NCBI GenBank assembly: GCA_964655705.1
Contig: CAZZPP010000001.1
Location: 9,207 to 58,123 of the forward strand
From: an uncultured Candidatus Saccharibacteria bacterium
Lineage (GTDB): Bacteria; Patescibacteriota; Dojkabacteria; SC72
Length of the DNA stretch: 48,917 nt
Direction: 5' to 3'
Part shown: piece after piece, positions 1-43,581 of the stretch
Position numbering within the stretch: the stretch's first letter is position 1
Layout: every line of letters begins with the position of its first letter
Program-made: the position numbers and the translations under genes
Notes under the pieces: model-generated
Database searches by the model: none
What the model was told of the DNA's origin: nothing
The model's input: the letters and a program-made list of their open reading frames with translations, nothing else

Positions 1-2022
1 TGGTCATGTACAGGTGGTACTTTGATTGAAAATGTGATAACTCTAACTTCTGAAGACGATGTAACATGTACAATCACTAATACTGCACAACCAGCAACAG
101 TAGTTGTTTACAAGAATGTTGTTGATTGGAACGGAAGTGAAGCATATTCTGATCAGGAGTTTGAAGTGATACTTGAAGGAAAGCTTTTGGTACCTTCTCA
201 GAATATTAGAGATTCAGAATTAGAACCAATGGTAGCTACTTTTGGTTTGCTAGATGCAGGAATATATACACCAACTGAAATAAATGTACCTGATGGATAC
301 ATATTTAATGAATGTTCTGTATATAGGCCTGTATTGAGTGATACAGAAATGTCAGCTATGTCCGTTCGTCCAACCAATTATGTAGGTAATGGAGAAACAC
401 TTGCATTTGTATGTGAGAACGAAGCAATACAACCAGAGTTAACTATCACAAAAGATAATGATAGTCCCATCTCAGGATTAGAAACAGGAAGTACAGTACT
501 TTACACATTAAGAATTGAAGCTCCATCTAATGAAACAGAAGGAACATATCTTGTTAACAATGTAAAAGTAACTGACATATTACCTGAAGGATTTGGATAT
601 GTAGCAGGTAGCTGGACAGCAGTATCCTCAGTTAGAGGAGATCTTAAAGCATTAAATATAACTAACCAACCAACATATAATGGCTCTCCTGCAACCTGGA
701 TACTAGGAAAAATGGTAGAAGGAGAAGTAATAACTCTAACATATGTTGCTAAAATTAACCTTCTTAATGAACCAGGAACATATAAAGATCTGGCATATGT
801 ACAAGGAGATTCCATACTAGCAGTATTAGATACTGGAGATGTATTAGGTCTAAGTTATAACGGAGGATATACACTTACTGAAACATTTGGAAAAAACTTC
901 GTAGGAACAAGAGTATTAATAATTGAACCAATAGAAGATGGAGGAGAAGTATTAGGAGCATCTATTACCTTACCAGTTACAGGTGCAGATACATATATAA
1001 CATTAGGAGCATTAATATCTATGATATTAGGATTTGTATTAATACTGTTTGGAAAGAAAAGAAAAATAGGGACTCTCTTTGTAGCCCTTGTAATCTCTCT
1101 TGGGTTGTTTACATTGTTAAAACCAATTGAAACATATGCCCAAACTCAAACACAAGTAAGTATTAGGTTAGAACAACCTAAAACAGGAATAACAGATAAA
1201 GAGTTTGAAATAACATATGTAGCTCTATCCATACCAGCACAACCATTAACAATACAATGTAAATACTCAACAGATGAGAATACCTGGGTTGATTTTGATA
1301 CTCCTAAAACAGCAAACAGTGATAGCTGTAGGGTAAATGAAACCGTAATTACTGGAAGCGGAACATACTACTTTAAAGTTGTTGCATCAACTACAGGTGG
1401 AGGAGCAGATTCTCAAGTAGTAAGTGTAGATATAATAGGGAACCCCTTACCAGTAACAGAGTACTCAAAAACAGAAGGAACATGTACATATACTCTTAAA
1501 TTTAAATCAACTACATCTAAAGTACAAATATATAGATCAGACAATCAGAAATCCTTCTATGCAGATGATACAACCTTAATAACCAAACCATCCCTTTCTG
1601 TTACACCTAACGTATTAACAACATATACAGACTCTAGTATTACAGACTGCTCTAAAGATTACTACTACGCAATTAGGTCCATAGATGACTACAACAATGT
1701 ATCTACCTTAGTAACAGATGACATTGTTACCATTGTAAGAACACCAGCCCCAATAACACCAACTACTCCAACTGAAATAACAGATGATGAAGGTGAAGTT
1801 GAAGGAGACGAAACAGCAATTGATGAAGAAGAAAAGGAAGATGAAAAAGAGGAAGGAGATGTTAAAGGAGATGAGGATACAGATTCTGAAAATGGAGAAG
1901 AAGACCAGGAAGATGAGAATAGTATTAAATCAATATGGGATGAATACAGATATTTAATTATCGCAATGGTAGTGGTAGCATTAGGAAGTGGAGTATACAA
2001 CTATGTCAGAAGAAAAAAGTAA
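1..2022 (+). CDS. 5'-truncated multidomain surface protein: pilin/SpaA-like repeat end, DUF11-like domain, internal LPVTG+TM+KKRK sorting signal, second signal peptide, FN3/Ig-like region, acidic linker, C-terminal TM
   Basis: Frame is open from base 1 (WSCTGGTLIEN..DVTCTITN). DUF11-like pattern LTITK..TVLYTLRI..VKVTDILPEGF.YV.GS. LPVTG at 970-984. D/E-rich stretch near 1785-1920. Ends in a hydrophobic helix plus RRKK. Confidence 0.8.
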   Translation, partial: WSCTGGTLIENVITLTSEDDVTCTITNTAQPATVVVYKNVVDWNGSEAYSDQEFEVILEGKLLVPSQNIRDSELEPMVATFGLLDAGIYTPTEINVPDGYIFNECSVYRPVLSDTEMSAMSVRPTNYVGNGETLAFVCENEAIQPELTITKDNDSPISGLETGSTVLYTLRIEAPSNETEGTYLVNNVKVTDILPEGFGYVAGSWTAVSSVRGDLKALNITNQPTYNGSPATWILGKMVEGEVITLTYVAKINLLNEPGTYKDLAYVQGDSILAVLDTGDVLGLSYNGGYTLTETFGKNFVGTRVLIIEPIEDGGEVLGASITLPVTGADTYITLGALISMILGFVLILFGKKRKIGTLFVALVISLGLFTLLKPIETYAQTQTQVSIRLEQPKTGITDKEFEITYVALSIPAQPLTIQCKYSTDENTWVDFDTPKTANSDSCRVNETVITGSGTYYFKVVASTTGGGADSQVVSVDIIGNPLPVTEYSKTEGTCTYTLKFKSTTSKVQIYRSDNQKSFYADDTTLITKPSLSVTPNVLTTYTDSSITDCSKDYYYAIRSIDDYNNVSTLVTDDIVTIVRTPAPITPTTPTEITDDEGEVEGDETAIDEEEKEDEKEEGDVKGDEDTDSENGEEDQEDENSIKSIWDEYRYLIIAMVVVALGSGVYNYVRRKK

Positions 2023-2727: not shown

Positions 2728-3576
2728 ATGAAAATACTTGATGGTAAACAAACAGCATTAAAGATATCCACTAGATTGAAAAAAGAAATATCAGAATTCT
2801 TACAACAAGGGAAGAGAGCTCCTAAGATAGAAATAATTCTTGTTGGAGATGATTATGCAAGTAAGATGTATGTAGATATGAAATCTAAGAAAGCTCTGGA
2901 TTTAGGTATAGATGTAAAAGTACATTCTTTAGAAGAAAACACAACAACAGAGGAGTTGGAAAAAATCTTAAACGAGTTAAATCAGAATGCCAGTATCGAT
3001 GGAATAATGGTTCAATTACCATTACCAAAACATATTGAGGAGAAAAGAATCCTGGGAATTATTTCTCCTCTTAAAGATGTAGATGGATTAACATCATATA
3101 ACTTGGGGAAACTTTTTAAAAATGATAGCAGTGCAATAGCGCCAGCAACTGCAAAGGGTGTAATACTACTTCTTAAAGAATACGACATCCAAATTGATGG
3201 TAAAAATGTAGTTGTAATTGGAAGGGGGGATATTGCAGGACTACCAATTGCAGCTATGCTTCAAAATGAAAATGGTACTGTAACAATATGTCATTCACAT
3301 ACGCAGAACTTAAAAGGAATATGTAAGAATGCCGATATCTTAGTATCTAGTATAGGGAAACCTGAATATATTAATTCTGAATATATTAAAGAAGGAAGCA
3401 TTGTAATTGATGTAGGAACCAACAGGAATACTGATGGAAAGTTAGTAGGAGATATAGACTTTTACTCTGTTAAAGATTTAGTCAAATATATTACACCAGT
3501 ACCTGGTGGTGTCGGCCCTATGACAATTGCTTGTCTGTTTGATAATTTAATTGAGATATATAGAAAGAATGTATAA
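2728..3576 (+). CDS. folD: Methylenetetrahydrofolate dehydrogenase/cyclohydrolase
   Basis: MKILDGK start, [31 protein letters not shown]. Confidence 0.97.
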
Positions 3577-4798
3577 AGACGAGATTTTTAAATATATAGA
3601 TGAAGAAGCGAAAAGACAGAAGGAAGGAATAGAGTTAATTGCTTCAGAAAACTATGTAAGTGAGGATGTCCTTAAAGCAATGGGAAGTATATTAACAAAC
3701 AAATATTCTGAAGGATATCCAGACAAAAGATATTATGGTGGAAATAAATATATAGATGAAATAGAAAAAGAGTGTATCCAAAGGGCTAAAGATCTTTTTA
3801 AGGCAGAGCATGTTAATGTTCAACCATATTCTGGCTCTCCTGCTAATTTAGCAGTACATCTTGCGTTCTTAAATCCAGGAGATAAAACAATGGGTATGGA
3901 ACTTTCTGCGGGAGGACATCTAACACACGGTTTTAAAGTATCTATCAGTGGTAAATATTTTAATTCTGTAAGTTATGGTGTAAATAGAGAAGGATATATT
4001 GACTATAATGAAGTAAGAGAAATTGCATTAGAGCATAAACCTAAATTAATATGGAGTGGATTTAGTGCATACTCAAGAGTTATTGATTGGAATGAATTTA
4101 GAAAGATAGCAGATGAGGTTGGAGCAATATTAGTTGCAGATATAGCACATGTTGCAGGATTAATTGCAGCAGGAGTATACCCATCTCCTGTAGGTATTGC
4201 TGATGTAGTCACTACAACCACACATAAGACTCTAAGAGGTCCTCGTGGTGCGATGATTATGTGTAAAGAGGAGTATGGAGAGGTAATAGATAAGGCGGTA
4301 TTCCCTGGTCTTCAGGGAGGCCCCCATAACCATACAACTGCAGGTATAGCGATAGCCCTTAAAGAGGCTATGAGTGATGAATTTAAAGAGTATTCCAAAC
4401 AAATAGTATTAAACTCAAAAGCTTTAGCTAAAGCATTGATGGATAAAGGGTATAGCATTGTATCTGGGGGAACAGATAATCATTTGTTCTTGGTTGATAC
4501 TGTAAAAAGTGTAAACATGAGTGGTAAAGAGGCTTCGGATATTTTGGAAAGTGTAAATATTACATTAAACAAAAATAGTATCCCATACGATGAAAGAAAA
4601 CCATGGGATCCATCAGGTGTAAGAATAGGAACACCAGCGATTACAACTAGAGGCATGAAAGAGAAAGAGATGGAACAGATAGCAGGATATATAGATAGAG
4701 CATTAAAGAGTAAATCAAAGGAGGAGATCAATTTAATTAGAGATGAGGTTAAGAAGTTTACTAAAGATTTTCCAATTCCTGGAATAGATAAATTGTAA
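3569..4798 (+). CDS. glyA: Serine hydroxymethyltransferase
   Basis: [41 protein letters not shown] (PLP Lys), [17 protein letters not shown] 3569 preferred to TTG 3551. Confidence 0.98.
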
Positions 4799-4808
4799 TA
4801 CATCTTAA

Positions 4809-6404
4809 ATGAAGGGTAATTTCTTAAAAGAGTTACAGATTGCTACCGTACAATCTGAATCTAATTGGAATCATTTTAAAGTTCACACTCTTCTACAAAA
4901 CTGTCATCAGAAACAACCCTCAATTAATGCTTACCTTGGAGCAAGATATAGTAGATCTAGTGATAGTATTGTTGATATTGCAAAAGAAATTATTCAAAAC
5001 AATACAGATGCAGCACAAAGACTAGAAGCAATATTCCATGGGTATGGTCATAAATCAGTAGGAGATATGGCAGAGCTTTTTGTATGTATAGAGAATATCC
5101 CAATGTATACAGCTATGAGAATTTTCTACCTTAATTCCGTTATCTCTGGTCAAGAGAGATCTACAAGATATCAAAATTTTAAAGATCCTCAATATATAAA
5201 AATTCCTAAAGAGGTTTGTAGCGATGAGAACATTAGAAAGGAGTATGAATCAATAATATTAAAACAGATGAACGACTATTCCTCTCTTTTAGAGAAAACA
5301 AAAGTATATCTCAAAGAATATTTCCATATTGATGAGGAGATTAAAGAAGAAAAATCTGTTCTTCAAGCTAGAAGTTTTGATACTGCTAGGTATCTATTAC
5401 CTTATGGATTACAAACGAGTATGGCAGCAGTGATGTCTGCAAGAAATTGGTCTGAACTAATTTCCTATCTTCATGCTAGTGACAATGTTGTAGAAAATGA
5501 AATTGGTAAACTACTTTACAATCTCTTGGGTGAATCTAAGATAGATATTAATGGATATATTAGAGAAGCAGATGGACTAATTAGGCATACTGATGCTAAC
5601 TGTTGTAGAAGAAATTCAACTAATGAGATATTAGAATATATATCTAAAGGAGTATTCCCACAAAAGGAGTATGAAAATATGGGTTGTGAGTGTGATTCTT
5701 GTAGTGTTAGTTTTCATACCAATACTACTGAGAATCTCGTAACTAACTATGAATTACTTCTTAATCCATTAGGTAGTACTAATGAGTATGAATTTGATCA
5801 AGAGGATTGTAAGGAGATCGGGGGAATTATATTTGAGAATCATAATCAGCACAATTTAATGGGAAATATTGGACAGAGTGGTGCTATTAAAATAGAGGGA
5901 ATGGCTACATTAGGAACACTTAAAGATTTAAATAGGCATAGAAGTTTAGAAAGATATATTCCTCTATTTCATGATCAAATAAATATAGATAACGAATTAG
6001 ATAGGGATAATGAAGATTGCTTCTTCCTATGCAACTATCTCGAGATTCCTAAACTAAAAGAGTTAAGGAAAGAGTATGAGAATTGTTTGAAAGATACATA
6101 TGATTTGATAAAAAAGTGGAGAAAAGTCTCATCTCAGTTTATGTCCGATGAAGTATCAAAAGAGTATACTAAGTATTTACTACCCCATGCACATTCCACA
6201 AAGTATATCTTCTATGGTTCCTTTGATGATTTGCAGTACACAATTAATCTGAGGAGTAGAAGAGGTGGACATATCTCATACCGAAGTTTAGTGTATAGGT
6301 GGTTGGAACTATTAAACAGTGAAGAGAGTATATGGTATCCTTTATTGAATAGTATTGAGTCCCCAGACCCTAGTTCTAGGGAGCAGTTTCTAGATAGAAG
6401 TTAA
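4809..6404 (+). CDS. thyX: FAD-dependent thymidylate synthase, long two-domain form
   Basis: ARYSRS, GYGHKSV, QERSTRY in domain 1; DLNRHRS and YTINLRS in domain 2; context folD-glyA-dcd. Confidence 0.88.
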   Translation: MKGNFLKELQIATVQSESNWNHFKVHTLLQNCHQKQPSINAYLGARYSRSSDSIVDIAKEIIQNNTDAAQRLEAIFHGYGHKSVGDMAELFVCIENIPMYTAMRIFYLNSVISGQERSTRYQNFKDPQYIKIPKEVCSDENIRKEYESIILKQMNDYSSLLEKTKVYLKEYFHIDEEIKEEKSVLQARSFDTARYLLPYGLQTSMAAVMSARNWSELISYLHASDNVVENEIGKLLYNLLGESKIDINGYIREADGLIRHTDANCCRRNSTNEILEYISKGVFPQKEYENMGCECDSCSVSFHTNTTENLVTNYELLLNPLGSTNEYEFDQEDCKEIGGIIFENHNQHNLMGNIGQSGAIKIEGMATLGTLKDLNRHRSLERYIPLFHDQINIDNELDRDNEDCFFLCNYLEIPKLKELRKEYENCLKDTYDLIKKWRKVSSQFMSDEVSKEYTKYLLPHAHSTKYIFYGSFDDLQYTINLRSRRGGHISYRSLVYRWLELLNSEESIWYPLLNSIESPDPSSREQFLDRS

Positions 6405-6421
6405 ATTTAAACAGAAGAGAA

Positions 6422-6982
6422 ATGATACTTGCTGATAGGAGTATAAAAGAGAAATTGCGCAGTGGGGAGATAAGTATAGAGCCTTTCTCGGATGAATTTC
6501 TACAGCCTGCTTCATATGATTTACATTTAGATAAAAACATATTACTGTTTAATACGGATAAGCATGATTCCATTGATGTAAAAAATCCTGTAGAAGATTT
6601 AATGATTAAGGTAGAGATGAGTGAACAAGAGGGTTTTTTGATTAAACCAAGCCAATTCATACTAGCTAACGCAGTGGAGATAACAGGTGTAGACGCAAGA
6701 CATGTGGGTAGACTTGAAGGTAAGAGCTCCTTAGCCAGAATGGGCTTAATCATACATGTTACCGCAGGATTTTTAGATCCTGGTAATAAACTAAGATTAA
6801 CTTTAGAGATAGTAAATCTTTCTCCTTTACCAATTAGGATATATCCAGGTATGAAGATTGCTCAACTAGCTTTTGAGGAATTAGATAAAAATTGTGAAAG
6901 GCCCTACGGTAGTACTGGCTTAAATAGTAAGTACAAAGGAGATTTAACAGTTCAGGCTAGTAAGATGTATAAGAATTTTTAA
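6422..6982 (+). CDS. dcd: dCTP deaminase
   Basis: MILAD, QPASYDL, GKSSLARMG, TAGFLDPG, LTLEIVN, GMKIAQL. Confidence 0.96.
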   Translation: MILADRSIKEKLRSGEISIEPFSDEFLQPASYDLHLDKNILLFNTDKHDSIDVKNPVEDLMIKVEMSEQEGFLIKPSQFILANAVEITGVDARHVGRLEGKSSLARMGLIIHVTAGFLDPGNKLRLTLEIVNLSPLPIRIYPGMKIAQLAFEELDKNCERPYGSTGLNSKYKGDLTVQASKMYKNF

Positions 6983-6998
6983 ATTAGTCATTTTAAAA

Positions 6999-8291
6999 AT
7001 GTTTGATGATATTAGAAAAGAGTTTCCCATATTAAAAAGTAGCATCTTTGATAGGGGATTAGTGTATTTAGATAGTGCTGCTACAACACAGAAACCTCAA
7101 GTAGTAATAGATAGAATATCTCAGTATTACAGTAAAGAGAATGCAAATATTCATAGAGGCCCATATGATTTGTCCATTAATGCTACAAATCTTTGGAAAG
7201 AGTCCCATCAAATAGTAGCTGATTTCTTAAATGCAGATTCATACAAGGAGATACTCTTTGTTAGAAATACTACAGAGGGTTTAAACTTCTTAGTAAACAC
7301 TTTTGGAAAGACTCTTCTTTCTGAGGGAGATACTGTAGTAATAACTGAAATGGAGCACCATAGTAATATTGTACCTTGGATGATACTTCAAAGAGATATT
7401 AAATTTAATATTGAGTATATTCCTGTTAAAGATGATTACACACTTGATTTAGACTGGGTAAAGGATTTAATTAAGAAAGAAGACAAGAGGATAAAGGTCA
7501 TATCTGTAATGCATATTTCTAATGTCTTAGGTGTTAAGAATGATGTAAAGGAGATATTTAAGATGGCTAAGAAAATAGGGGCTTTTACAATACTTGATGC
7601 AGCTCAAAGTATTGCTAGATGTAAAGTGGATGTTAAAGAGATTGGATGTGATGCTTTGGTATTTTCAGGACATAAGGTATATGGTCCTACAGGTAGTGGC
7701 GCCATATATATTAATCTGAAATATCTCGATAACCTTTTACCATGGATGGGAGGTGGGGAGATGATTGAGTCTGTTACTAAGGAAGGTTTTGAATATAATG
7801 AATTACCTTGGAAATTCGAAGCAGGTACTCCTGACATTGCAGATGGGATAGCACTAGGTACCGCATTAAATTGGTTAAGGGATACTGTTGAAAAGGTGGG
7901 TGGTTGGGATATGGTAATTAATCATGAACAGGGATTAATGGGTAACTTCCTAAATGAGTTTAATGGTATTGATTGGTTTGTTCATTTTGGTCCTGATGAT
8001 ATAGCTCTTAAGTATGGGGCTATTGCATTCAATATTAAGGGTTTTAAGTTTAGAGGATGTAAGGATGTTAATAGTCTTGATACTAAACAGGATGGAGAGG
8101 GGATTATGGAGTTTCTAAATAGAAAAGGTATTGCATTTAGAGAAGGGTTTCATTGTGCAGAGCCCTTACATGATAGATTCTGTACAGGTCCTACATTAAG
8201 ATTAAGTCTGGGTATATACAGCAATGAGTCTGATATGAAGTATGCTGCTAACTCTCTTAAAGAGGCTGTACTAAGTGGTCTAGCCTTGTAA
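6999..8291 (+). CDS. sufS: SufS-type cysteine desulfurase
   Basis: YLDSAATTQKP, EMEHHSN, DAAQS, FSGHK.YGP, FEAGTP, REGFHCA (catalytic Cys). Confidence 0.9.
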   Translation: MFDDIRKEFPILKSSIFDRGLVYLDSAATTQKPQVVIDRISQYYSKENANIHRGPYDLSINATNLWKESHQIVADFLNADSYKEILFVRNTTEGLNFLVNTFGKTLLSEGDTVVITEMEHHSNIVPWMILQRDIKFNIEYIPVKDDYTLDLDWVKDLIKKEDKRIKVISVMHISNVLGVKNDVKEIFKMAKKIGAFTILDAAQSIARCKVDVKEIGCDALVFSGHKVYGPTGSGAIYINLKYLDNLLPWMGGGEMIESVTKEGFEYNELPWKFEAGTPDIADGIALGTALNWLRDTVEKVGGWDMVINHEQGLMGNFLNEFNGIDWFVHFGPDDIALKYGAIAFNIKGFKFRGCKDVNSLDTKQDGEGIMEFLNRKGIAFREGFHCAEPLHDRFCTGPTLRLSLGIYSNESDMKYAANSLKEAVLSGLAL

Positions 8292-8364: not shown

Positions 8365-9459
8365 ATGGATTACTCAAATGACAATGGGATGATTGCTGAA
8401 ATAGTAGAGTTAGGAAATAAACTCTCTTCTTCTAATACGCCTGTTGAATTAAAAGAACAGGTTATGCGTACCATACAAAGACTTGAGAGAATGGCTAAAT
8501 GGGGTAGCTATAGTTCTGAATTTGAGAGTGTAGATAAATATGTTGATTGGGTAACAAGAATACCTTGGGGAGTAGTTTCTGAAGACAATTTAGATATTAA
8601 GAATGCAAAAGAGCTCTTAGATTCTACTCACTATGGAATAGAAACAGTAAAGGAGATGATATTGGACTATATTGCAGCTATGCAATTAAAGAAGTTGGTT
8701 AAAGGGAAAGATAGTGTTGAAAAAACTCCTACTACTCCAACATTACTTTTCCTAGGTCTTCAGGGTATTGGTAAGACAACTATTGCTCAATCAATAGCAA
8801 AGGCTATGGGTAGGAAGTTTGCTAGAATATCTTTAGGTGCAGTCGGTGATGTAAGAACTCTAAGAGGTGTTCCTAGGCATGAGATAGATTCAGAACCTGG
8901 TCAAGTTATTAAGGCATTAGTAAGAACAGGTACTATGAATCCCGTTATATTGGTAGATGAAATTGAAAAGTCTAGTCAAAACAAGGGTGTCTTAAATGAT
9001 ATTATGGCTGCCCTTTTAGAAATCTTAGATCCTGAACAGAATTCTACTTTTGTAGACCACTATATTGATCATCCAGTAGATCTTTCTCAAGTCTTTTTCA
9101 TTTGTACAGCAAACAACTTAGGAGGGCTATCTGCTGCATTACTAGACAGATTAGAGGTAATCCGTTTTACTAGTTACAATGATCAAGAAAAAGAAGTTAT
9201 TGCAAAACAATATATTCTCCCTAAGGTTTTTGCTAGTATGGGATTGTCTGCTGAATATCTTCAGATATCTCAAGAGGTATGGCCACTTTTAATTAGGCCT
9301 GTTGGTTTTGATGCAGGAATACGTCAATTAGAAAGGAATATCTCTACGTTAGCCAGAAGTGCTGCTAGAGAGATTGTAAGTGGTAAGAGAATACCTGTTG
9401 TAATTACTCCTGAGAACTTAAAGCAGTATGTACTACCTGATCAGGGACCCCTAAGTTAG
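8365..9459 (+). CDS. Lon-family AAA+ ATPase lacking the C-terminal protease domain
   Basis: Lon-like W...IPW, L...HYG...VKE, Walker A GLQGIGKT, Walker B ILVDEIEK, ALLEILDPEQN, TAN, LLDRLE. Stop follows the lid helices. Start 8365 chosen because TG-A-TATATT lies 5 nt upstream (track start 8308). Confidence 0.85.
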   Translation: MDYSNDNGMIAEIVELGNKLSSSNTPVELKEQVMRTIQRLERMAKWGSYSSEFESVDKYVDWVTRIPWGVVSEDNLDIKNAKELLDSTHYGIETVKEMILDYIAAMQLKKLVKGKDSVEKTPTTPTLLFLGLQGIGKTTIAQSIAKAMGRKFARISLGAVGDVRTLRGVPRHEIDSEPGQVIKALVRTGTMNPVILVDEIEKSSQNKGVLNDIMAALLEILDPEQNSTFVDHYIDHPVDLSQVFFICTANNLGGLSAALLDRLEVIRFTSYNDQEKEVIAKQYILPKVFASMGLSAEYLQISQEVWPLLIRPVGFDAGIRQLERNISTLARSAAREIVSGKRIPVVITPENLKQYVLPDQGPLS

Positions 9460-16494: not shown

Positions 16495-17049
16495 TTACTG
16501 AATCTCTTTAATATCTAGTTGGAAGTCCTCATTAAACCTGACATTAGAGAAACTCTCAATAGCGAGATATACAACATATTTCTCCTTAGGAATTAAAAGA
16601 ATCTTTTGTGCAGTTATATCCCCATTAGGACTTTGAATTCTATATACCTGATCATTGATGATTAATGAGATATTGGAACGGGTAGGTATATTGGTATTTC
16701 CATATATCTCTAGTTTAATCTCATCATTTTTGTTATTAGTTATCTCTAATATGGGTTTAGAGTACCTATCCGCATCCCTATTCTCTATGGTGGTTGTATA
16801 CCTATATACCCCCTGTTCATCTTGTTCAAGTCTTTCTCTACTAAATATTTGATGACTACCTCCAACTATCTGTATATCTAATTCTGCCTTTTCACTTACA
16901 CCTAATACATCAATTTCTTTTAGAGCTTTAGTTAAAGGTTCTAAATTCATAACGGTGATTGTTGGTATTATGAAGAGTAGGGCAAGTAAGCCAAGAGCTA
17001 TTGGTTCAATTACTAAGGTAAGAAATTTTTTAAACTTTTGATTTTTCAT
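16495..17049 (-). CDS. Membrane-anchored beta-rich hypothetical protein
   Basis: N-terminal TM followed by DVLGVS motif; stop/start overlap with the upstream gene. Confidence 0.7.
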   Translation of the reverse strand: MKNQKFKKFLTLVIEPIALGLLALLFIIPTITVMNLEPLTKALKEIDVLGVSEKAELDIQIVGGSHQIFSRERLEQDEQGVYRYTTTIENRDADRYSKPILEITNNKNDEIKLEIYGNTNIPTRSNISLIINDQVYRIQSPNGDITAQKILLIPKEKYVVYLAIESFSNVRFNEDFQLDIKEIQ

Positions 17050-17966: not shown

Positions 17967-18365
17967 ATGATTAATACTAAAAAGGTACTTCTCATTACCC
18001 TTCTAATTGTAATCCCACTTGTTGCTTTGATATCATCTGGGTATTTAATATTCTTTAAACAAGATTCAGAAGTTAAGGGAGTAACTACTAAAGAAAAGGG
18101 TTGTGTACCATATATTGTAAATACAATACCAAGAGTTGCATATGTTGGAGAGGAATACCACTTCTTTCCAAGAGTATCTGGATGTCAGGTAGAAGAGATT
18201 GAGGTGAGAGGAGTAGGATGGTTAAATGTTGATAGTGATATGGGTATTTCGGGTATTCCCAAAAAGGAAGATATTGGAACTTTTAAGATTGAGATATATA
18301 CTCGTAGTAGTACGGATAGTTATGTGCTCAAAGATTACATAATCGTTAAAGAGAATGAGAAATAA
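17967..18365 (+). CDS. Small membrane-anchored protein with putative Ig (He_PIG/cadherin-like) domain
   Basis: N-terminal TM, SEVKGV, then P..AYVGEEY.F..GWL......ISG.P...D.G.F.I.I. Confidence 0.7.
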   Translation: MINTKKVLLITLLIVIPLVALISSGYLIFFKQDSEVKGVTTKEKGCVPYIVNTIPRVAYVGEEYHFFPRVSGCQVEEIEVRGVGWLNVDSDMGISGIPKKEDIGTFKIEIYTRSSTDSYVLKDYIIVKENEK

Positions 18366-18750
18366 CTGGATTGTAATGGGTGGGGTCGTATTACTACTAA
18401 TATCCGTAGTTACACTTTTTGTATTTAAATCATCTGCATCAGAAGATTCCACCTACGTTGAGGGTTGCACCCCATTCAATGTCGAGGTAAAAAGGGGAGA
18501 GAAAGAAAACAGTGTAGATATATCTTGGAAGAGTAAGGATGAGTGCTCAGGATATATTCTTTACGGTAAAGAGATGCGAGGGTTGGATATGGTTGGTGTA
18601 GATTTGTTAAATGAGGTTCAGAGTAAAGAGCATACAGTAACAATATCTAGTTTAGTAAGTACTAAGAGGTATTACTTTACAATTATTTCAAATGGTATTA
18701 GTTACGGTAAGGGTGGGCTCCCATTACAGTTCTCTATCGATTCCCTCTAG
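18355..18750 (+). CDS. Small secreted FN3/purple-acid-phosphatase-N-like domain protein
   Basis: Signal peptide; V.ISW..C.GYILYG..H.V.ISSL....RYYF.I.S.G pattern, shared with 39092-40696. Confidence 0.72.
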   Translation: MRNNWIVMGGVVLLLISVVTLFVFKSSASEDSTYVEGCTPFNVEVKRGEKENSVDISWKSKDECSGYILYGKEMRGLDMVGVDLLNEVQSKEHTVTISSLVSTKRYYFTIISNGISYGKGGLPLQFSIDSL

Positions 18751-29497: not shown

Positions 29498-30292
29498 TTA
29501 TATTCTTTCTGCTACTACAATCAGTCTCTTTATACCGGCACCTAAAGGCCAACAGGTCATTAATGTTACAGTTTCTTTGTCTCCTTGACTTCTTAAGATG
29601 GTAAAATCATCTGCATCTACAATCTTCTTGTTTCTAACAACATATTCGAAAATCTCCTCCTCCTTTTTGATTTCTACTACATCTCCAATGTCTACATCCT
29701 CGAGTTTTGTAAATATGGTCTCAGGTAGATTGGAGTGTTTACTAAAGAAACTTAAAACAGCGCTATGACCATATATGAAGGAGTTACCACCATCACCAGG
29801 AAGAGGTGTTCCCCTGAAATGTGCCAAACCATATTTCAAATATCTGTCATATACTTCCTCCTGAGAGCTCTCTACATTAGGGGTAATTCTTACGGTATCA
29901 ATCCCAACCTCTGAAATTGAGAGGTACATATTTTTACTGTATGACTTGTCTACAACAATTTCCTTTGTACTCTTTGTCTCTGGATCGTAAGTAAAGAGAC
30001 CTTGGTATTCCAAATTTTCGGCGTTCTCTGAAAGATTCTCAAAATAGCTTTTACCTGGGTCGTAGTAAGCAAATTCATTCTCAATATATTCTTTGTATGA
30101 TTCAGGTACAGGATCTTTCATTAGATCTTGCTTTGAAAGTTGAATTTCACCTTGTATATATGAGATTAGAAGAGGAATGGATTGGCTTAAGAGAATTGTT
30201 ACTCCTACAATCCCTAGTATCCAAGAGATACTTTTTTTGGTATCTGCTATTTTCTTCTCACTTACTTTTTTAACTTGTATATCATTATCCAT
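29498..30292 (-). CDS. Sortase (second paralog, with longer stalk)
   Basis: TM; GLAHF.GT.LPG..GNS.I.GHS, TLMTCWP, KRLIVVA. ATG 30292 preferred to TTG 30313. Confidence 0.92.
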   Translation of the reverse strand: MDNDIQVKKVSEKKIADTKKSISWILGIVGVTILLSQSIPLLISYIQGEIQLSKQDLMKDPVPESYKEYIENEFAYYDPGKSYFENLSENAENLEYQGLFTYDPETKSTKEIVVDKSYSKNMYLSISEVGIDTVRITPNVESSQEEVYDRYLKYGLAHFRGTPLPGDGGNSFIYGHSAVLSFFSKHSNLPETIFTKLEDVDIGDVVEIKKEEEIFEYVVRNKKIVDADDFTILRSQGDKETVTLMTCWPLGAGIKRLIVVAERI

Positions 30293-30335
30293 GGGTAAAA
30301 TATATATTACCAATATTGGGTTTTAAAGTCACATG

Positions 30336-42096: not shown

Positions 42097-43581
42097 ATGG
42101 GTATTTCTAAAAAAATATATTTAAATATTCTTAGTATAAAGGGTATTACTCAGAGGAAGAGTTTTAAGATCTCTTTTATGACCATTATGACTTTTCTAAT
42201 GTTTTTCATGACATTCAACTCCTATGCACAAGAAGAAACAATTTCTCCTGATTGGTCTGGGACACAGGAGTTCTGTAATAATATCAGTGGGGTAAAAGAT
42301 GGTAAGCAAGACAATGTCGTAACAGGTAATTGCACACATGTTGAGGCCGGTGCATGGACTGCAGCAGTCCTATTAGATCCTTCGGTTTCACCAGACTATG
42401 TAACTGTTCTAGACAATCCTAGAATACCTAGTGACTTGAAAGCAGGGTTAATTGGTTTAGCTGATAGTGCAGGTACTGCCTTGTATGCTAACTATCCTCT
42501 AATTAATATCCCACAACATTTAGCACAACGATGGGTTCCTGGATATGAAGATAGTACAACATCTTTGTATGCTGCTGAATCTCATCCAAGTGGTTATTCC
42601 GTATTATCAGATTCAGGTATTGCCGGCTTATGGACTAGAACATTAAATCTTTCCTACCTTTTCTTTGTAGTGGTAATGATTGTTGCAGGTTTCATGATTA
42701 TGTTCAGACACAAACTGGGAGGACAAACAATGGTTACATTAGCAAATGTATTACCCAGAGTAATTTCTGCTTTAATATTTGCAACTTTTAGTTTTGCCAT
42801 AGCGGGACTAGTTATTGATTTGGGTGGAATAGTAATGAATCTAATTGCTTACATATATGAGGGGGTTGAATTAAATTCAATTTCAAAAGTATCGACCTTA
42901 ATGGCAAGTGTATTGAATACCAAAGCATGGACACTAACTGGTGCTGGTGGTTTGACAGCATATGTTTTTTCGGGATTGGGCTTGAAAGCTATTACCGCGA
43001 AGGCGGTAGCAGCAGGTGCAGCGGCTACAGGATTCTTGCCATTTCTCTTAGGTGCTGTTGGAGCAGTCGGCATTATTGCATTGATTCTTGCAGTAGTTAT
43101 TTTAGGTATTTTCTTCGTTGGTGCTTTGAAGGTAATAATTACTCTGTTTAAGGCATATATCCAACTATTACTTGCCGTTATCTTAGGACCCATACAAATA
43201 ACATTGGGTGCGCTCCCAGGGTCTTCTCATGCAATTAAGAATTGGCTATTAAGTATTCTGAGAAACGTTATGGTGTTTCCTGTAGTTTTTGCTATTGTTA
43301 ATTTACCAAACGCTCTTGCTGCTTCAGATAAAATACTTGTAAGTTTTCCAGGGAAATTAGTAAATGAGGATCCTTCAGCATATTATCCAGAGGGTGTAGA
43401 TGCAAATTCAGGGTTTTTCATTTTAGTAATGAAAATATTTGTTCTGTACTTTGCTGCTCAAGCACCTAAATTCTTGGAGAAGTGGTTCCCACCTGATTCA
43501 TCTAGAGCAATGCAAGAAGGGTACAAACAGACTAAAGATAGTTTGCAAAAGATTCCACTTGTAGGAGGTATGTTTAAATAA
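42097..43581 (+). CDS. VirB6/TrbL-like polytopic membrane protein
   Basis: Signal (SYA^Q), W....NLSY.FFVVV.IVAGFMIMFR..LPRVI.AL..ATFSFAI.GL.ID, AYIQLLL.VILGP, W...IL.N..VFP, ending KIPLVGG. Confidence 0.72.
   Translation: MGISKKIYLNILSIKGITQRKSFKISFMTIMTFLMFFMTFNSYAQEETISPDWSGTQEFCNNISGVKDGKQDNVVTGNCTHVEAGAWTAAVLLDPSVSPDYVTVLDNPRIPSDLKAGLIGLADSAGTALYANYPLINIPQHLAQRWVPGYEDSTTSLYAAESHPSGYSVLSDSGIAGLWTRTLNLSYLFFVVVMIVAGFMIMFRHKLGGQTMVTLANVLPRVISALIFATFSFAIAGLVIDLGGIVMNLIAYIYEGVELNSISKVSTLMASVLNTKAWTLTGAGGLTAYVFSGLGLKAITAKAVAAGAAATGFLPFLLGAVGAVGIIALILAVVILGIFFVGALKVIITLFKAYIQLLLAVILGPIQITLGALPGSSHAIKNWLLSILRNVMVFPVVFAIVNLPNALAASDKILVSFPGKLVNEDPSAYYPEGVDANSGFFILVMKIFVLYFAAQAPKFLEKWFPPDSSRAMQEGYKQTKDSLQKIPLVGGMFK

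Follow-up and report, generated by a model that had tools for sequence, protein, structure and literature searches.

What becomes of a sortase sorting signal that stands in the middle of a protein and continues, in frame, into a second hydrophobic segment? This question is raised by an open reading frame (ORF) at the left edge of a 48,917-nucleotide (nt) stretch of DNA, here called the window (positions 9,207 to 58,123 of contig CAZZPP010000001.1, assembly GCA_964655705.1), from an uncultured Candidatus Saccharibacteria bacterium that GTDB places in the Dojkabacteria. The ORF is free of stop codons in frame +1 from nt 1 to a TAA at 2020-2022; its N terminus is truncated by the left edge of the window, and the upstream continuation is visible in the relative P0008. 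The window holds 673 of its residues, 318 of them after a basic KKRK patch, and the junction reads GEVLGASIT-LPVTG-ADTYITLGALISMILGFVLILFG-KKRK-IGTLFVALVISLGLFTLL-KPIETYA-Q, followed by QTQTQVSIRLEQPK. Between LPVTG and the second helix, our reading of the window found no stop codon and no ATG, GTG or TTG. We propose, with a probability of roughly 60%, that this single protein would be cut into two surface products, the same two that split operons make. The gene itself is probably the fused form of a cassette conserved in the candidate phyla radiation (CPR), which consists of a giant LPxTG stalk, a protein with a signal peptide, two FN3-like domains (FN3x2) and a transmembrane (TM) helix, and a sortase.

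All parts of the junction lie on the plus strand. Nucleotides 1 to 969 encode the C-terminal end of the stalk, with the edge of a SpaA_2 domain at residues 1-25 and a DUF11 domain at about nt 439-807 (PF01345, residues 147-269; 27.2 bits against a Pfam gathering threshold of 24.6). A GEVLG motif (943-957) stands just ahead of the internal sortase motif LPVTG (970-984), which we read from the sequence and recovered in the homologue alignment. It is followed by TM1, the 23-residue hydrophobic part of the sorting signal (985-1053), which is a helix (model residues 14-36) in an AlphaFold2 model run from GEVLG to the end of the ORF with an alignment of 12 sequences. Next come KKRK (1054-1065), whose aligned columns hold K or R in fused and stand-alone forms alike; the 18-residue hydrophobic region (h-region) of TM2 (1066-1119), which aligns with stand-alone signal peptides; and a c-region, KPIETYA (1120-1140), with a predicted signal peptidase I site, TYA/Q, between nt 1140 and the Q at 1141. 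Downstream of this site, two tandem FN3-like beta-sandwich domains (1141-1740) lead through an acidic disordered linker (1741-1950; predicted local distance difference test [pLDDT] <50) to TM3 (YLIIAMVVVALGSGVYNYV, 1951-2007; AlphaFold helix, model residues 329-358), which is kept in fused and stand-alone homologues, and to a cytoplasmic RRKK tail (2008-2019) read directly before the stop. The sortase gene (PF04203, 6e-24), starting at a GTG at 1988 or an ATG at 2003 and ending at 2668, overlaps this stop.

Most of this layout had been claimed in a first-pass annotation of the window, and it stands: GEVLGASIT-LPVTG-TM-KKRK continues without a stop, the second region has its own TM segment and RRKK, the sortase overlaps the stop, and the TYA/Q end does resemble that of the ORF at 42097-43581, which starts ...MTFNSYA/QEE. 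The same annotation labeled the first half "DUF11/pilin-like", of which the DUF11 part is right and the pilin part loosely so, the region being the tail end of a giant, monomeric stalk of SpaA/DUF11 type; no pilin motif was noticed in the C-terminal 673 residues within the window, where no search aimed at pilin motifs was made. Measured against a textbook sorting signal, the junction has the LPXTG motif, the hydrophobic segment and the basic tail, and within the window it lies away from the extreme C terminus. Measured against a signal peptide, it has an n-region (KKRK), an h-region, T at -3 and A at -1, and within the window it lies away from the N terminus. The charges obey the positive-inside rule, with KKRK between TM1 and TM2, RRKK after TM3, and acidic or neutral outside flanks, a pattern that an out-in-out-in topology would fit.

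One reading of such a junction is that it is an artefact, or that the gene is decaying: two genes that are in truth separate would have been joined through a sequencing or assembly indel at the A-rich codons of KKRK, or through a recent frameshift. The junction DNA (ggaaagaaaagaaaaatagg) is indeed A-rich, a +1-frame TAG follows KKRK at 1067-1069, and it is a single base of reading frame, in an 8-nt overlap, that sets split relatives apart from fused ones. The homologues speak against it. Down to about 30% identity, relatives P0002 to P0014 and P0016 share the order LPxTG-TM-basic-TM-AxA-module-linker-TM-basic (P0008, a C-terminally truncated fragment, was left out of this count), and the relatives found come from Dojkabacteria, Microgenomates and other Patescibacteria. 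Two independent assemblies, P0002 (NCBI) and P0003 (ENA), have the same LPxTG-to-TYA junction as the window save for the x residue, which is A in place of V. Across 12 homologues reaching down to 28% identity, the P, T and G of LPxTG never vary, nor does the A that comes next, and the nucleotide differences across the junction between the window and five relatives fall mostly at codon position 3 (16/4/30 for L007). To see how common the arrangement is, we classified 157 module sequences, the top representative clusters at 50% identity: 105 are fused, the module following an in-frame LPxTG with two hydrophobic segments, 49 are stand-alone or N-terminally short, and three are long with a variant motif. 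With more than 100 fused clusters, a third-position bias across the junction, no start codon in the window for a separate downstream gene, and off-frame stops at such a distance being common in these AT-rich genes, we give the artefact next to no credence; assembly error in particular is ruled out by the many independent fused homologues. The check suggested in the first-pass annotation, whether homologues keep the fused LPxTG-TM-KK-signal layout, is thereby answered in the affirmative for 105 of 157 clusters, and homologues are not consistently split after the basic patch, as that annotation had allowed they might be: both states exist, the fused one being commoner. An apparently unusual conservation of TM1 (74% against 58% for the module) was dropped, as the subset had been chosen by its TM1 motif and was biased.

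The fused modules mostly sit at the C-terminal end of SpaA/DUF11 stalk proteins of 1,500-2,900 amino acids (aa), and full-length fused relatives carry an N-terminal signal peptide (e.g., P0065 and P0128) and repeats of the SpaA, SpaA_2, SpaA_4, SdrD_B, DUF7507 and DUF11 families. A scan of GTDB species representatives returned 36 loci, about 25 of them fused and seven split, from Dojkabacteria/WS6, Gottesman-, Collier-, Roizman- and Shapirobacteria, Paceibacterota, Parcubacteria and bins labeled Saccharibacteria. A layout that returns in about 25 species representatives and in over 100 clusters goes beyond chance. The cassette is also present in records titled "uncultured Gammaproteobacteria" or "Pseudomonadales" (L016, L021, L025-L028, L030, L032-L034 and L036-L038), which are third-party annotation (TPA) co-assembly bins whose labels look unreliable. 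Two irregularities in the stalk genes are worth recording. At the P0013 locus (L002/L003, 7830-7832), a single TGA parts a signal-peptide-bearing SpaA ORF from the fused ORF in the same frame; it stands at the Trp of the stalk-repeat "GW" motif (VQSG*TA) and occurs in both records of the locus, one being a Logan assembly and the other a JGI metagenome contig. On the syntenic Dojkabacteria-like contig L001, the stalk gene is broken at about 7690-7740 by apparent frameshifts and the sortase has ambiguous residues; these breaks look like draft-sequence errors, not real ones.

The evidence that carries our proposal concerns TM2. About 45 stand-alone homologues, 306-344 aa in length, begin with M-[KR]-K, continue with an h-region and V/A-x-A, and then enter the module at once, as in MRKLLTLAISLLTLFALTGRAYA/GSVSIRLEEPKSP and MFKKIIASACVVIASLFVGTQVYA/TDVSVR. 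When 150 junction segments were aligned with MAFFT, independently of any motif, the fused TM2 superposed on these N-terminal signal peptides. The -1 column of this alignment is Ala in 145 of 149 sequences (104/105 fused, 41/42 stand-alone), on a par with the most conserved columns of the folded domain; at -3 the residue is V/A/T/I and at -2 Y/F/H/L, and in the homologue alignment A1 residue A66 is invariant. Pro or Gly often stands 4-6 residues ahead of the site, in fused and stand-alone forms alike. A site-picker gave the same composition, with an h-core of 17 residues in fused against 16 in stand-alone forms and an n-region charge of +3 against +2, and is biased by design, so that we rely on the MAFFT alignment.

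The same topology arguments hold if TM2 is an uncleaved span, in which case the sortase alone would cut and leave a three-span remainder made of the TM1-KKRK-TM2 hairpin, the FN3x2 ectodomain and TM3. An 18-residue hydrophobic core is long enough to cross the membrane, and in the AlphaFold model the TM2 helix runs without a break across the AxA site, at low confidence. To our knowledge, natural cleavage of internal signal peptides has rarely been documented in bacteria. Even so, we regard an uncleaved TM2 as unlikely, because without cleavage the -3 and -1 positions should drift in many deep fused lineages, whereas the fused proteins keep Ala at -1, V/A/T/I at -3 and the upstream Pro or Gly just as stand-alone signal peptides do. 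Nor is the length of the core telling, stand-alone signal peptides of the Gram-positive type having equally long h-regions.

How do the two halves part at split loci? We looked at nine such loci and found the upstream LPxTG tail in seven. In five of them (L005, L006, L013, L014 and L016), the upstream ORF ends ...GEVLGAST-LPxTG-TM-RRxxx*, with its stop 8 nt inside the downstream gene as counted from the ATG; in L019 and L021 the overlap is likewise 8 nt if the second ATG is the true start, and 23 nt from the first. At L015 and L026, the upstream LPxTG tail was not recovered. In L005, L006, L013 and L016, the basic-tail codons include a Shine-Dalgarno sequence of the AGGAG type, so that the spot occupied by KKRK in the window holds the upstream stop, a Shine-Dalgarno sequence and the downstream ATG. 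The split upstream genes thus end in a canonical C-terminal sorting signal. The relatives P0015 and P0017 likewise looked like canonical C-terminal LPXTG proteins, the tail of P0017 being identical, and that of P0015 near-identical, to the tail of the upstream ORF of split locus L019. What separates split from fused is one base of frame inside the 8-nt overlap, and 23 of the 105 fused proteins keep a Met at the position aligned with the stand-alone initiator.

How often has this step been taken? On a neighbor-joining tree of the module, parsimony counts at least 25 state changes, against a mean of 38 and a minimum of 30 for shuffled labels, the tree being a rough one of a 200-residue domain. 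By this count, the fused and split states appear clustered yet exchanged many times, and their interspersion on the module tree makes them look functionally interchangeable. Two other ways of obtaining separate products from the fused gene of the window were considered and rejected. An internal translation start would need a start codon near KKRK, and the window has none there. Programmed +1 frameshifting in the A-rich KKRK codons, ending at the TAG at 1067-1069, was set aside as similar off-frame stops occur 1-16 codons off in most of the AT-rich relatives.

The second product would be the FN3x2 module with its membrane anchor. The AlphaFold2 model contains the TM1 and TM2 helices, two beta-sandwich domains (pLDDT 80-96), the disordered acidic linker and the third helix. 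A Foldseek search of the PDB with this model returned tandem FN3 pairs (Tie2 Fn2-3, gp130 and contactins; E of about 1e-6, 8-16% identity), so that the FN3-like label given earlier is upheld by fold and not by sequence: the module has no sequence match in Pfam, with no fn3 hit at E≤1, and no significant sequence relative in the PDB. Each domain has a pair of cysteines, C37/C60 kept in 150 of 150 sequences and C112/C167 in 147-148 of 150, as would be expected of an exported domain. The lysine of a YSK motif is K in 146 of 150 sequences and R or H in the other four. When the profile of the module was searched against 1.84 billion representative proteins, it matched 1,608 proteins at E≤1e-3, and 451 of them passed E≤1e-30. 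The module therefore represents a protein family of at least 451 clusters without a Pfam model.

The third member of the cassette is the sortase, with a membrane anchor at its N terminus and TLMTCWP as its catalytic motif. It lies directly 3' of the module ORF both in the window and in all related loci that extend far enough (L001-L004, L006 and the GTDB loci), and it overlaps the module stop in the window and in most of these loci, so that the adjacent genes look as if translationally coupled. Its closest solved structures are class C pilus sortases (E 5e-11 to 1e-7), and no lid motif was seen on reading its sequence. At locus L009 (3830-4312), the sortase after the fused gene breaks off at 160 aa, short of the catalytic Cys, and is either a pseudogene or an assembly error. 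The window also encodes a second sortase paralogue of 271 aa, ending ...TVTLMTCWPLGAGIKRLIVVAERI (29498-30313, minus strand), beside genes for membrane-anchored proteins; no further LPxTG + TM signal was found in the window, and the substrate of this paralogue is not there.

Taken together, these observations suggest the following course of events. The precursor would be exported via Sec by its N-terminal signal peptide, which lies outside the window and is seen in full-length relatives. TM1 would halt transfer, leaving KKRK in the cytoplasm, and TM2 would restart translocation as an internal signal peptide, so that both FN3-like domains are exported before TM3 and RRKK halt transfer again. 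The co-encoded membrane sortase would then cut LPVT/G and hand the stalk to an acceptor, most simply a wall precursor, and signal peptidase I would cut after TYA, turning the FN3x2 part into a type-I membrane protein. A TM1-KKRK-TM2 hairpin of about 53 residues would be left over and degraded. The fused gene would in this way give the two mature products of the split operons, at a fixed 1:1 ratio and at one and the same site, and FN3x2 may be the membrane partner of the stalk, one per stalk, or its base. This is in essence the two-product model of the first-pass annotation, which gains comparative support from the equivalence of fused and split forms, the conserved -1 Ala and the linked sortase. 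Its identification of the second helix as a signal peptide draws strong comparative support from the alignment to stand-alone signal peptides, the -1 Ala and the interspersed states. Its suggestion that KKRK doubles as retention tail and n-region agrees with the aligned columns, K or R in both forms, and with the split loci, which put a stop and an ATG at that place.

Several points weigh against a protein cut twice. The LPxTG anchor models of Pfam (14.0 against a cut-off of 20) and TIGR01167 (15.1 against 15.9) score the junction below threshold, as is to be expected because the sorting signal is not C-terminal. Together with the atypically internal position of the signal, these scores would also suit a protein that is not processed at all, with LPVTG unused and the whole chain serving as one polytopic membrane-anchored adhesin. 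We consider this very unlikely: L-P-x-T-G-A is invariant across fused and split forms, the same motif belongs to a canonical C-terminal sorting signal at the split loci, and a dedicated sortase overlaps the gene. The continuous TM2 helix of the AlphaFold model has been mentioned, as has the roughness of the tree behind the state changes; some of the "stand-alone" calls, moreover, may be gene-caller starts within fused ORFs. Conservation of AxA could in part reflect recent or repeated fusion and not ongoing selection for cleavage. Export of the stalk is deduced from homologues, the N terminus being outside the window. The sortase fits no curated class: it scores below the cut-offs of all NCBIfam class models, the best being class C (NF033745, 69 bits against 160), and those of classes D and E among them. 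Finally, no signal peptidase I gene or motif was found in the window. An S24 peptidase gene near the sortase in L002 was considered for this role and is LexA-like instead.

In our proposal, the stalk would most simply end up on the wall. Alternatively, FN3x2 could itself be the acceptor, the sortase joining the LPVT carboxyl of the stalk to the new N-terminal amine or to a lysine of the module, which would tether the fibre to the membrane via TM3. The stalk, module and sortase genes are always adjacent and overlapping, as translational coupling would give, and frequent fusion enforces a 1:1 ratio that suits a once-per-stalk partner better than a catalyst. The nearest solved sortases, those of class C, join LPXT to a protein lysine, and the YSK lysine is a nearly constant candidate. 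There is also a precedent of sorts in PamR, a protein of two FN3 domains and a C-terminal TM segment that has been proposed as the membrane tether of another CPR filament (bioRxiv 10.64898/2026.03.03.709456). On the other hand, the exchange of the YSK lysine for R or H in four of 150 sequences hints at a charge or structural role and weakens it as a sortase nucleophile, and the residue at +1 after AxA varies (A, S, G, D, E, V...), where sortases usually favor Gly or Ala. The sortase, for its part, scores far below the class C cut-off and shows no lid motif. An ordinary acceptor should be available as well, near-complete peptidoglycan pathways having been reported in CPR (PMC7143001). On balance, transfer of the stalk to the module seems to us improbable.

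What keeps the acceptor or basal-subunit idea alive is, besides the forced 1:1 amounts and the class-C-like sortase, the likeness of the module tail to a sorting signal. An [VI]LG motif lies at most 14 aa upstream of LPxTG in 104 of 106 fused relatives, and G-x-V-L-G recurs once or twice in the otherwise unalignable module tail. Per 1000 aa, [VI]LG is found 13.2 times in module tails, 1.04 times in stalks and 0.15 times in FN3 domains. The tail in the window has two copies of the form G-[ED]-V-x-G, GEVEG at 1792-1806 and GDVKG at 1855-1869, and in alignment A1, G305, V307 and G309 show little or no variation. The tail thus looks like a sorting signal that lacks the scissile motif. It is tempting to speculate about a three-part fibre-anchoring machine, in which FN3x2 would be the basal subunit, its tail would dock the sortase as an uncleavable sorting signal, and the stalk would be transferred to the module and not to the wall; we hold such a machine to be a long shot. 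If it were true, sortase and signal peptidase would together excise the TM1-KKRK-TM2 hairpin and rejoin the two ectodomains, a natural enzyme-driven protein splicing that would yield a membrane-tethered fibre. Elsewhere in the window, small proteins encoded at 16495-17049 (minus strand) and 17967-18750 (plus strand) have an N-terminal membrane helix followed by (D/E)V(L/K)G (EIDVLGVSEK and SEVKGVT), which may be the same membrane-proximal motif.

How does the proposed processing into two products compare with known systems? The closest parallel is offered by the streptococcal IgA1 protease and ZmpB/C/D. In these proteins, a signal peptide is followed by an LPXTG at an unusual position and by two hydrophobic segments, and a second signal-peptidase site has been proposed (PMC3518915); proteomics supports their dependence on sortase, in that loss of sortase A depletes them (PMC13604702). 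The likeness lies in the order of the elements: signal peptide, LPXTG, hydrophobic segment, a second segment put forward as a further signal peptide with its own signal-peptidase site, and a large extracellular domain. The differences are several. In the Zmp proteins, the piece before LPXTG is near the N terminus, ahead of the repeat and protease regions, whereas here it is a stalk of at least 1,500 aa; a C-terminal membrane anchor is present here and none is described for Zmp (PMC3518915); and the window protein has no HEXXH protease domain in Pfam and no sequence relationship to Zmp. Moreover, it has its own sortase tied to the gene, a natural split two-gene form, and a CPR host in place of a Firmicute. 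It is no member of the Zmp family, and the two only work alike. The layout of the junction is therefore known from Zmp, and what is new are the large passengers on both sides, the second membrane anchor, the dedicated sortase, the natural split form and the host group, the layout being widespread in Dojkabacteria and Microgenomates.

The canonical Gram-positive sorting signals of SpaA/SdrD-type adhesins share with the window protein the motif, the hydrophobic segment, the basic tail, the SpaA/SdrD_B/DUF11 stalk and the adjacent sortase, whereas in the window and about two thirds of the relatives the signal is internal and runs into a second exported protein. Sortase-assembled pili resemble the cassette in their Ig-like SpaA folds, a sortase nearest to class C, and the clustered genes for substrate, small partner and sortase, but here one giant polypeptide forms the stalk, where pili are built by polymerizing small pilins. 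PamR of the CPR Pam pilus is similar by description, having a tandem FN3 ectodomain, a C-terminal TM segment and a CPR host, whereas the Pam pilus itself uses donor-strand exchange with chaperones and no sortase.

Directly downstream of the cassette, window positions 2728-8291 hold genes of nucleotide and one-carbon metabolism, namely folD, glyA, a gene for a 531-aa Thy1 (ThyX) of about twice the usual length, and dcd, and L001 has the same order. Scans of the window for tRNAs and against Rfam were empty.

More than half of CPR genomes, and nearly all Microgenomates, are reported to encode sortases (PMC6744442). In the literature that we searched, we found no description of CPR sortase substrates, nor of this substrate architecture. 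The locus suggests what the usual substrate system of these sortases may be, namely the sortase itself together with a giant stalk and a double-FN3 membrane protein that lacks an annotation. Stalk and module appear to have been fused and split repeatedly, so that the split relatives provide a built-in control for the fused ones. If cut as proposed, the fused form would be among very few bacterial polyproteins resolved by a sortase together with signal peptidase at an internal signal peptide, and it would offer a testable handle on how ultra-small episymbiotic bacteria build long surface fibres.

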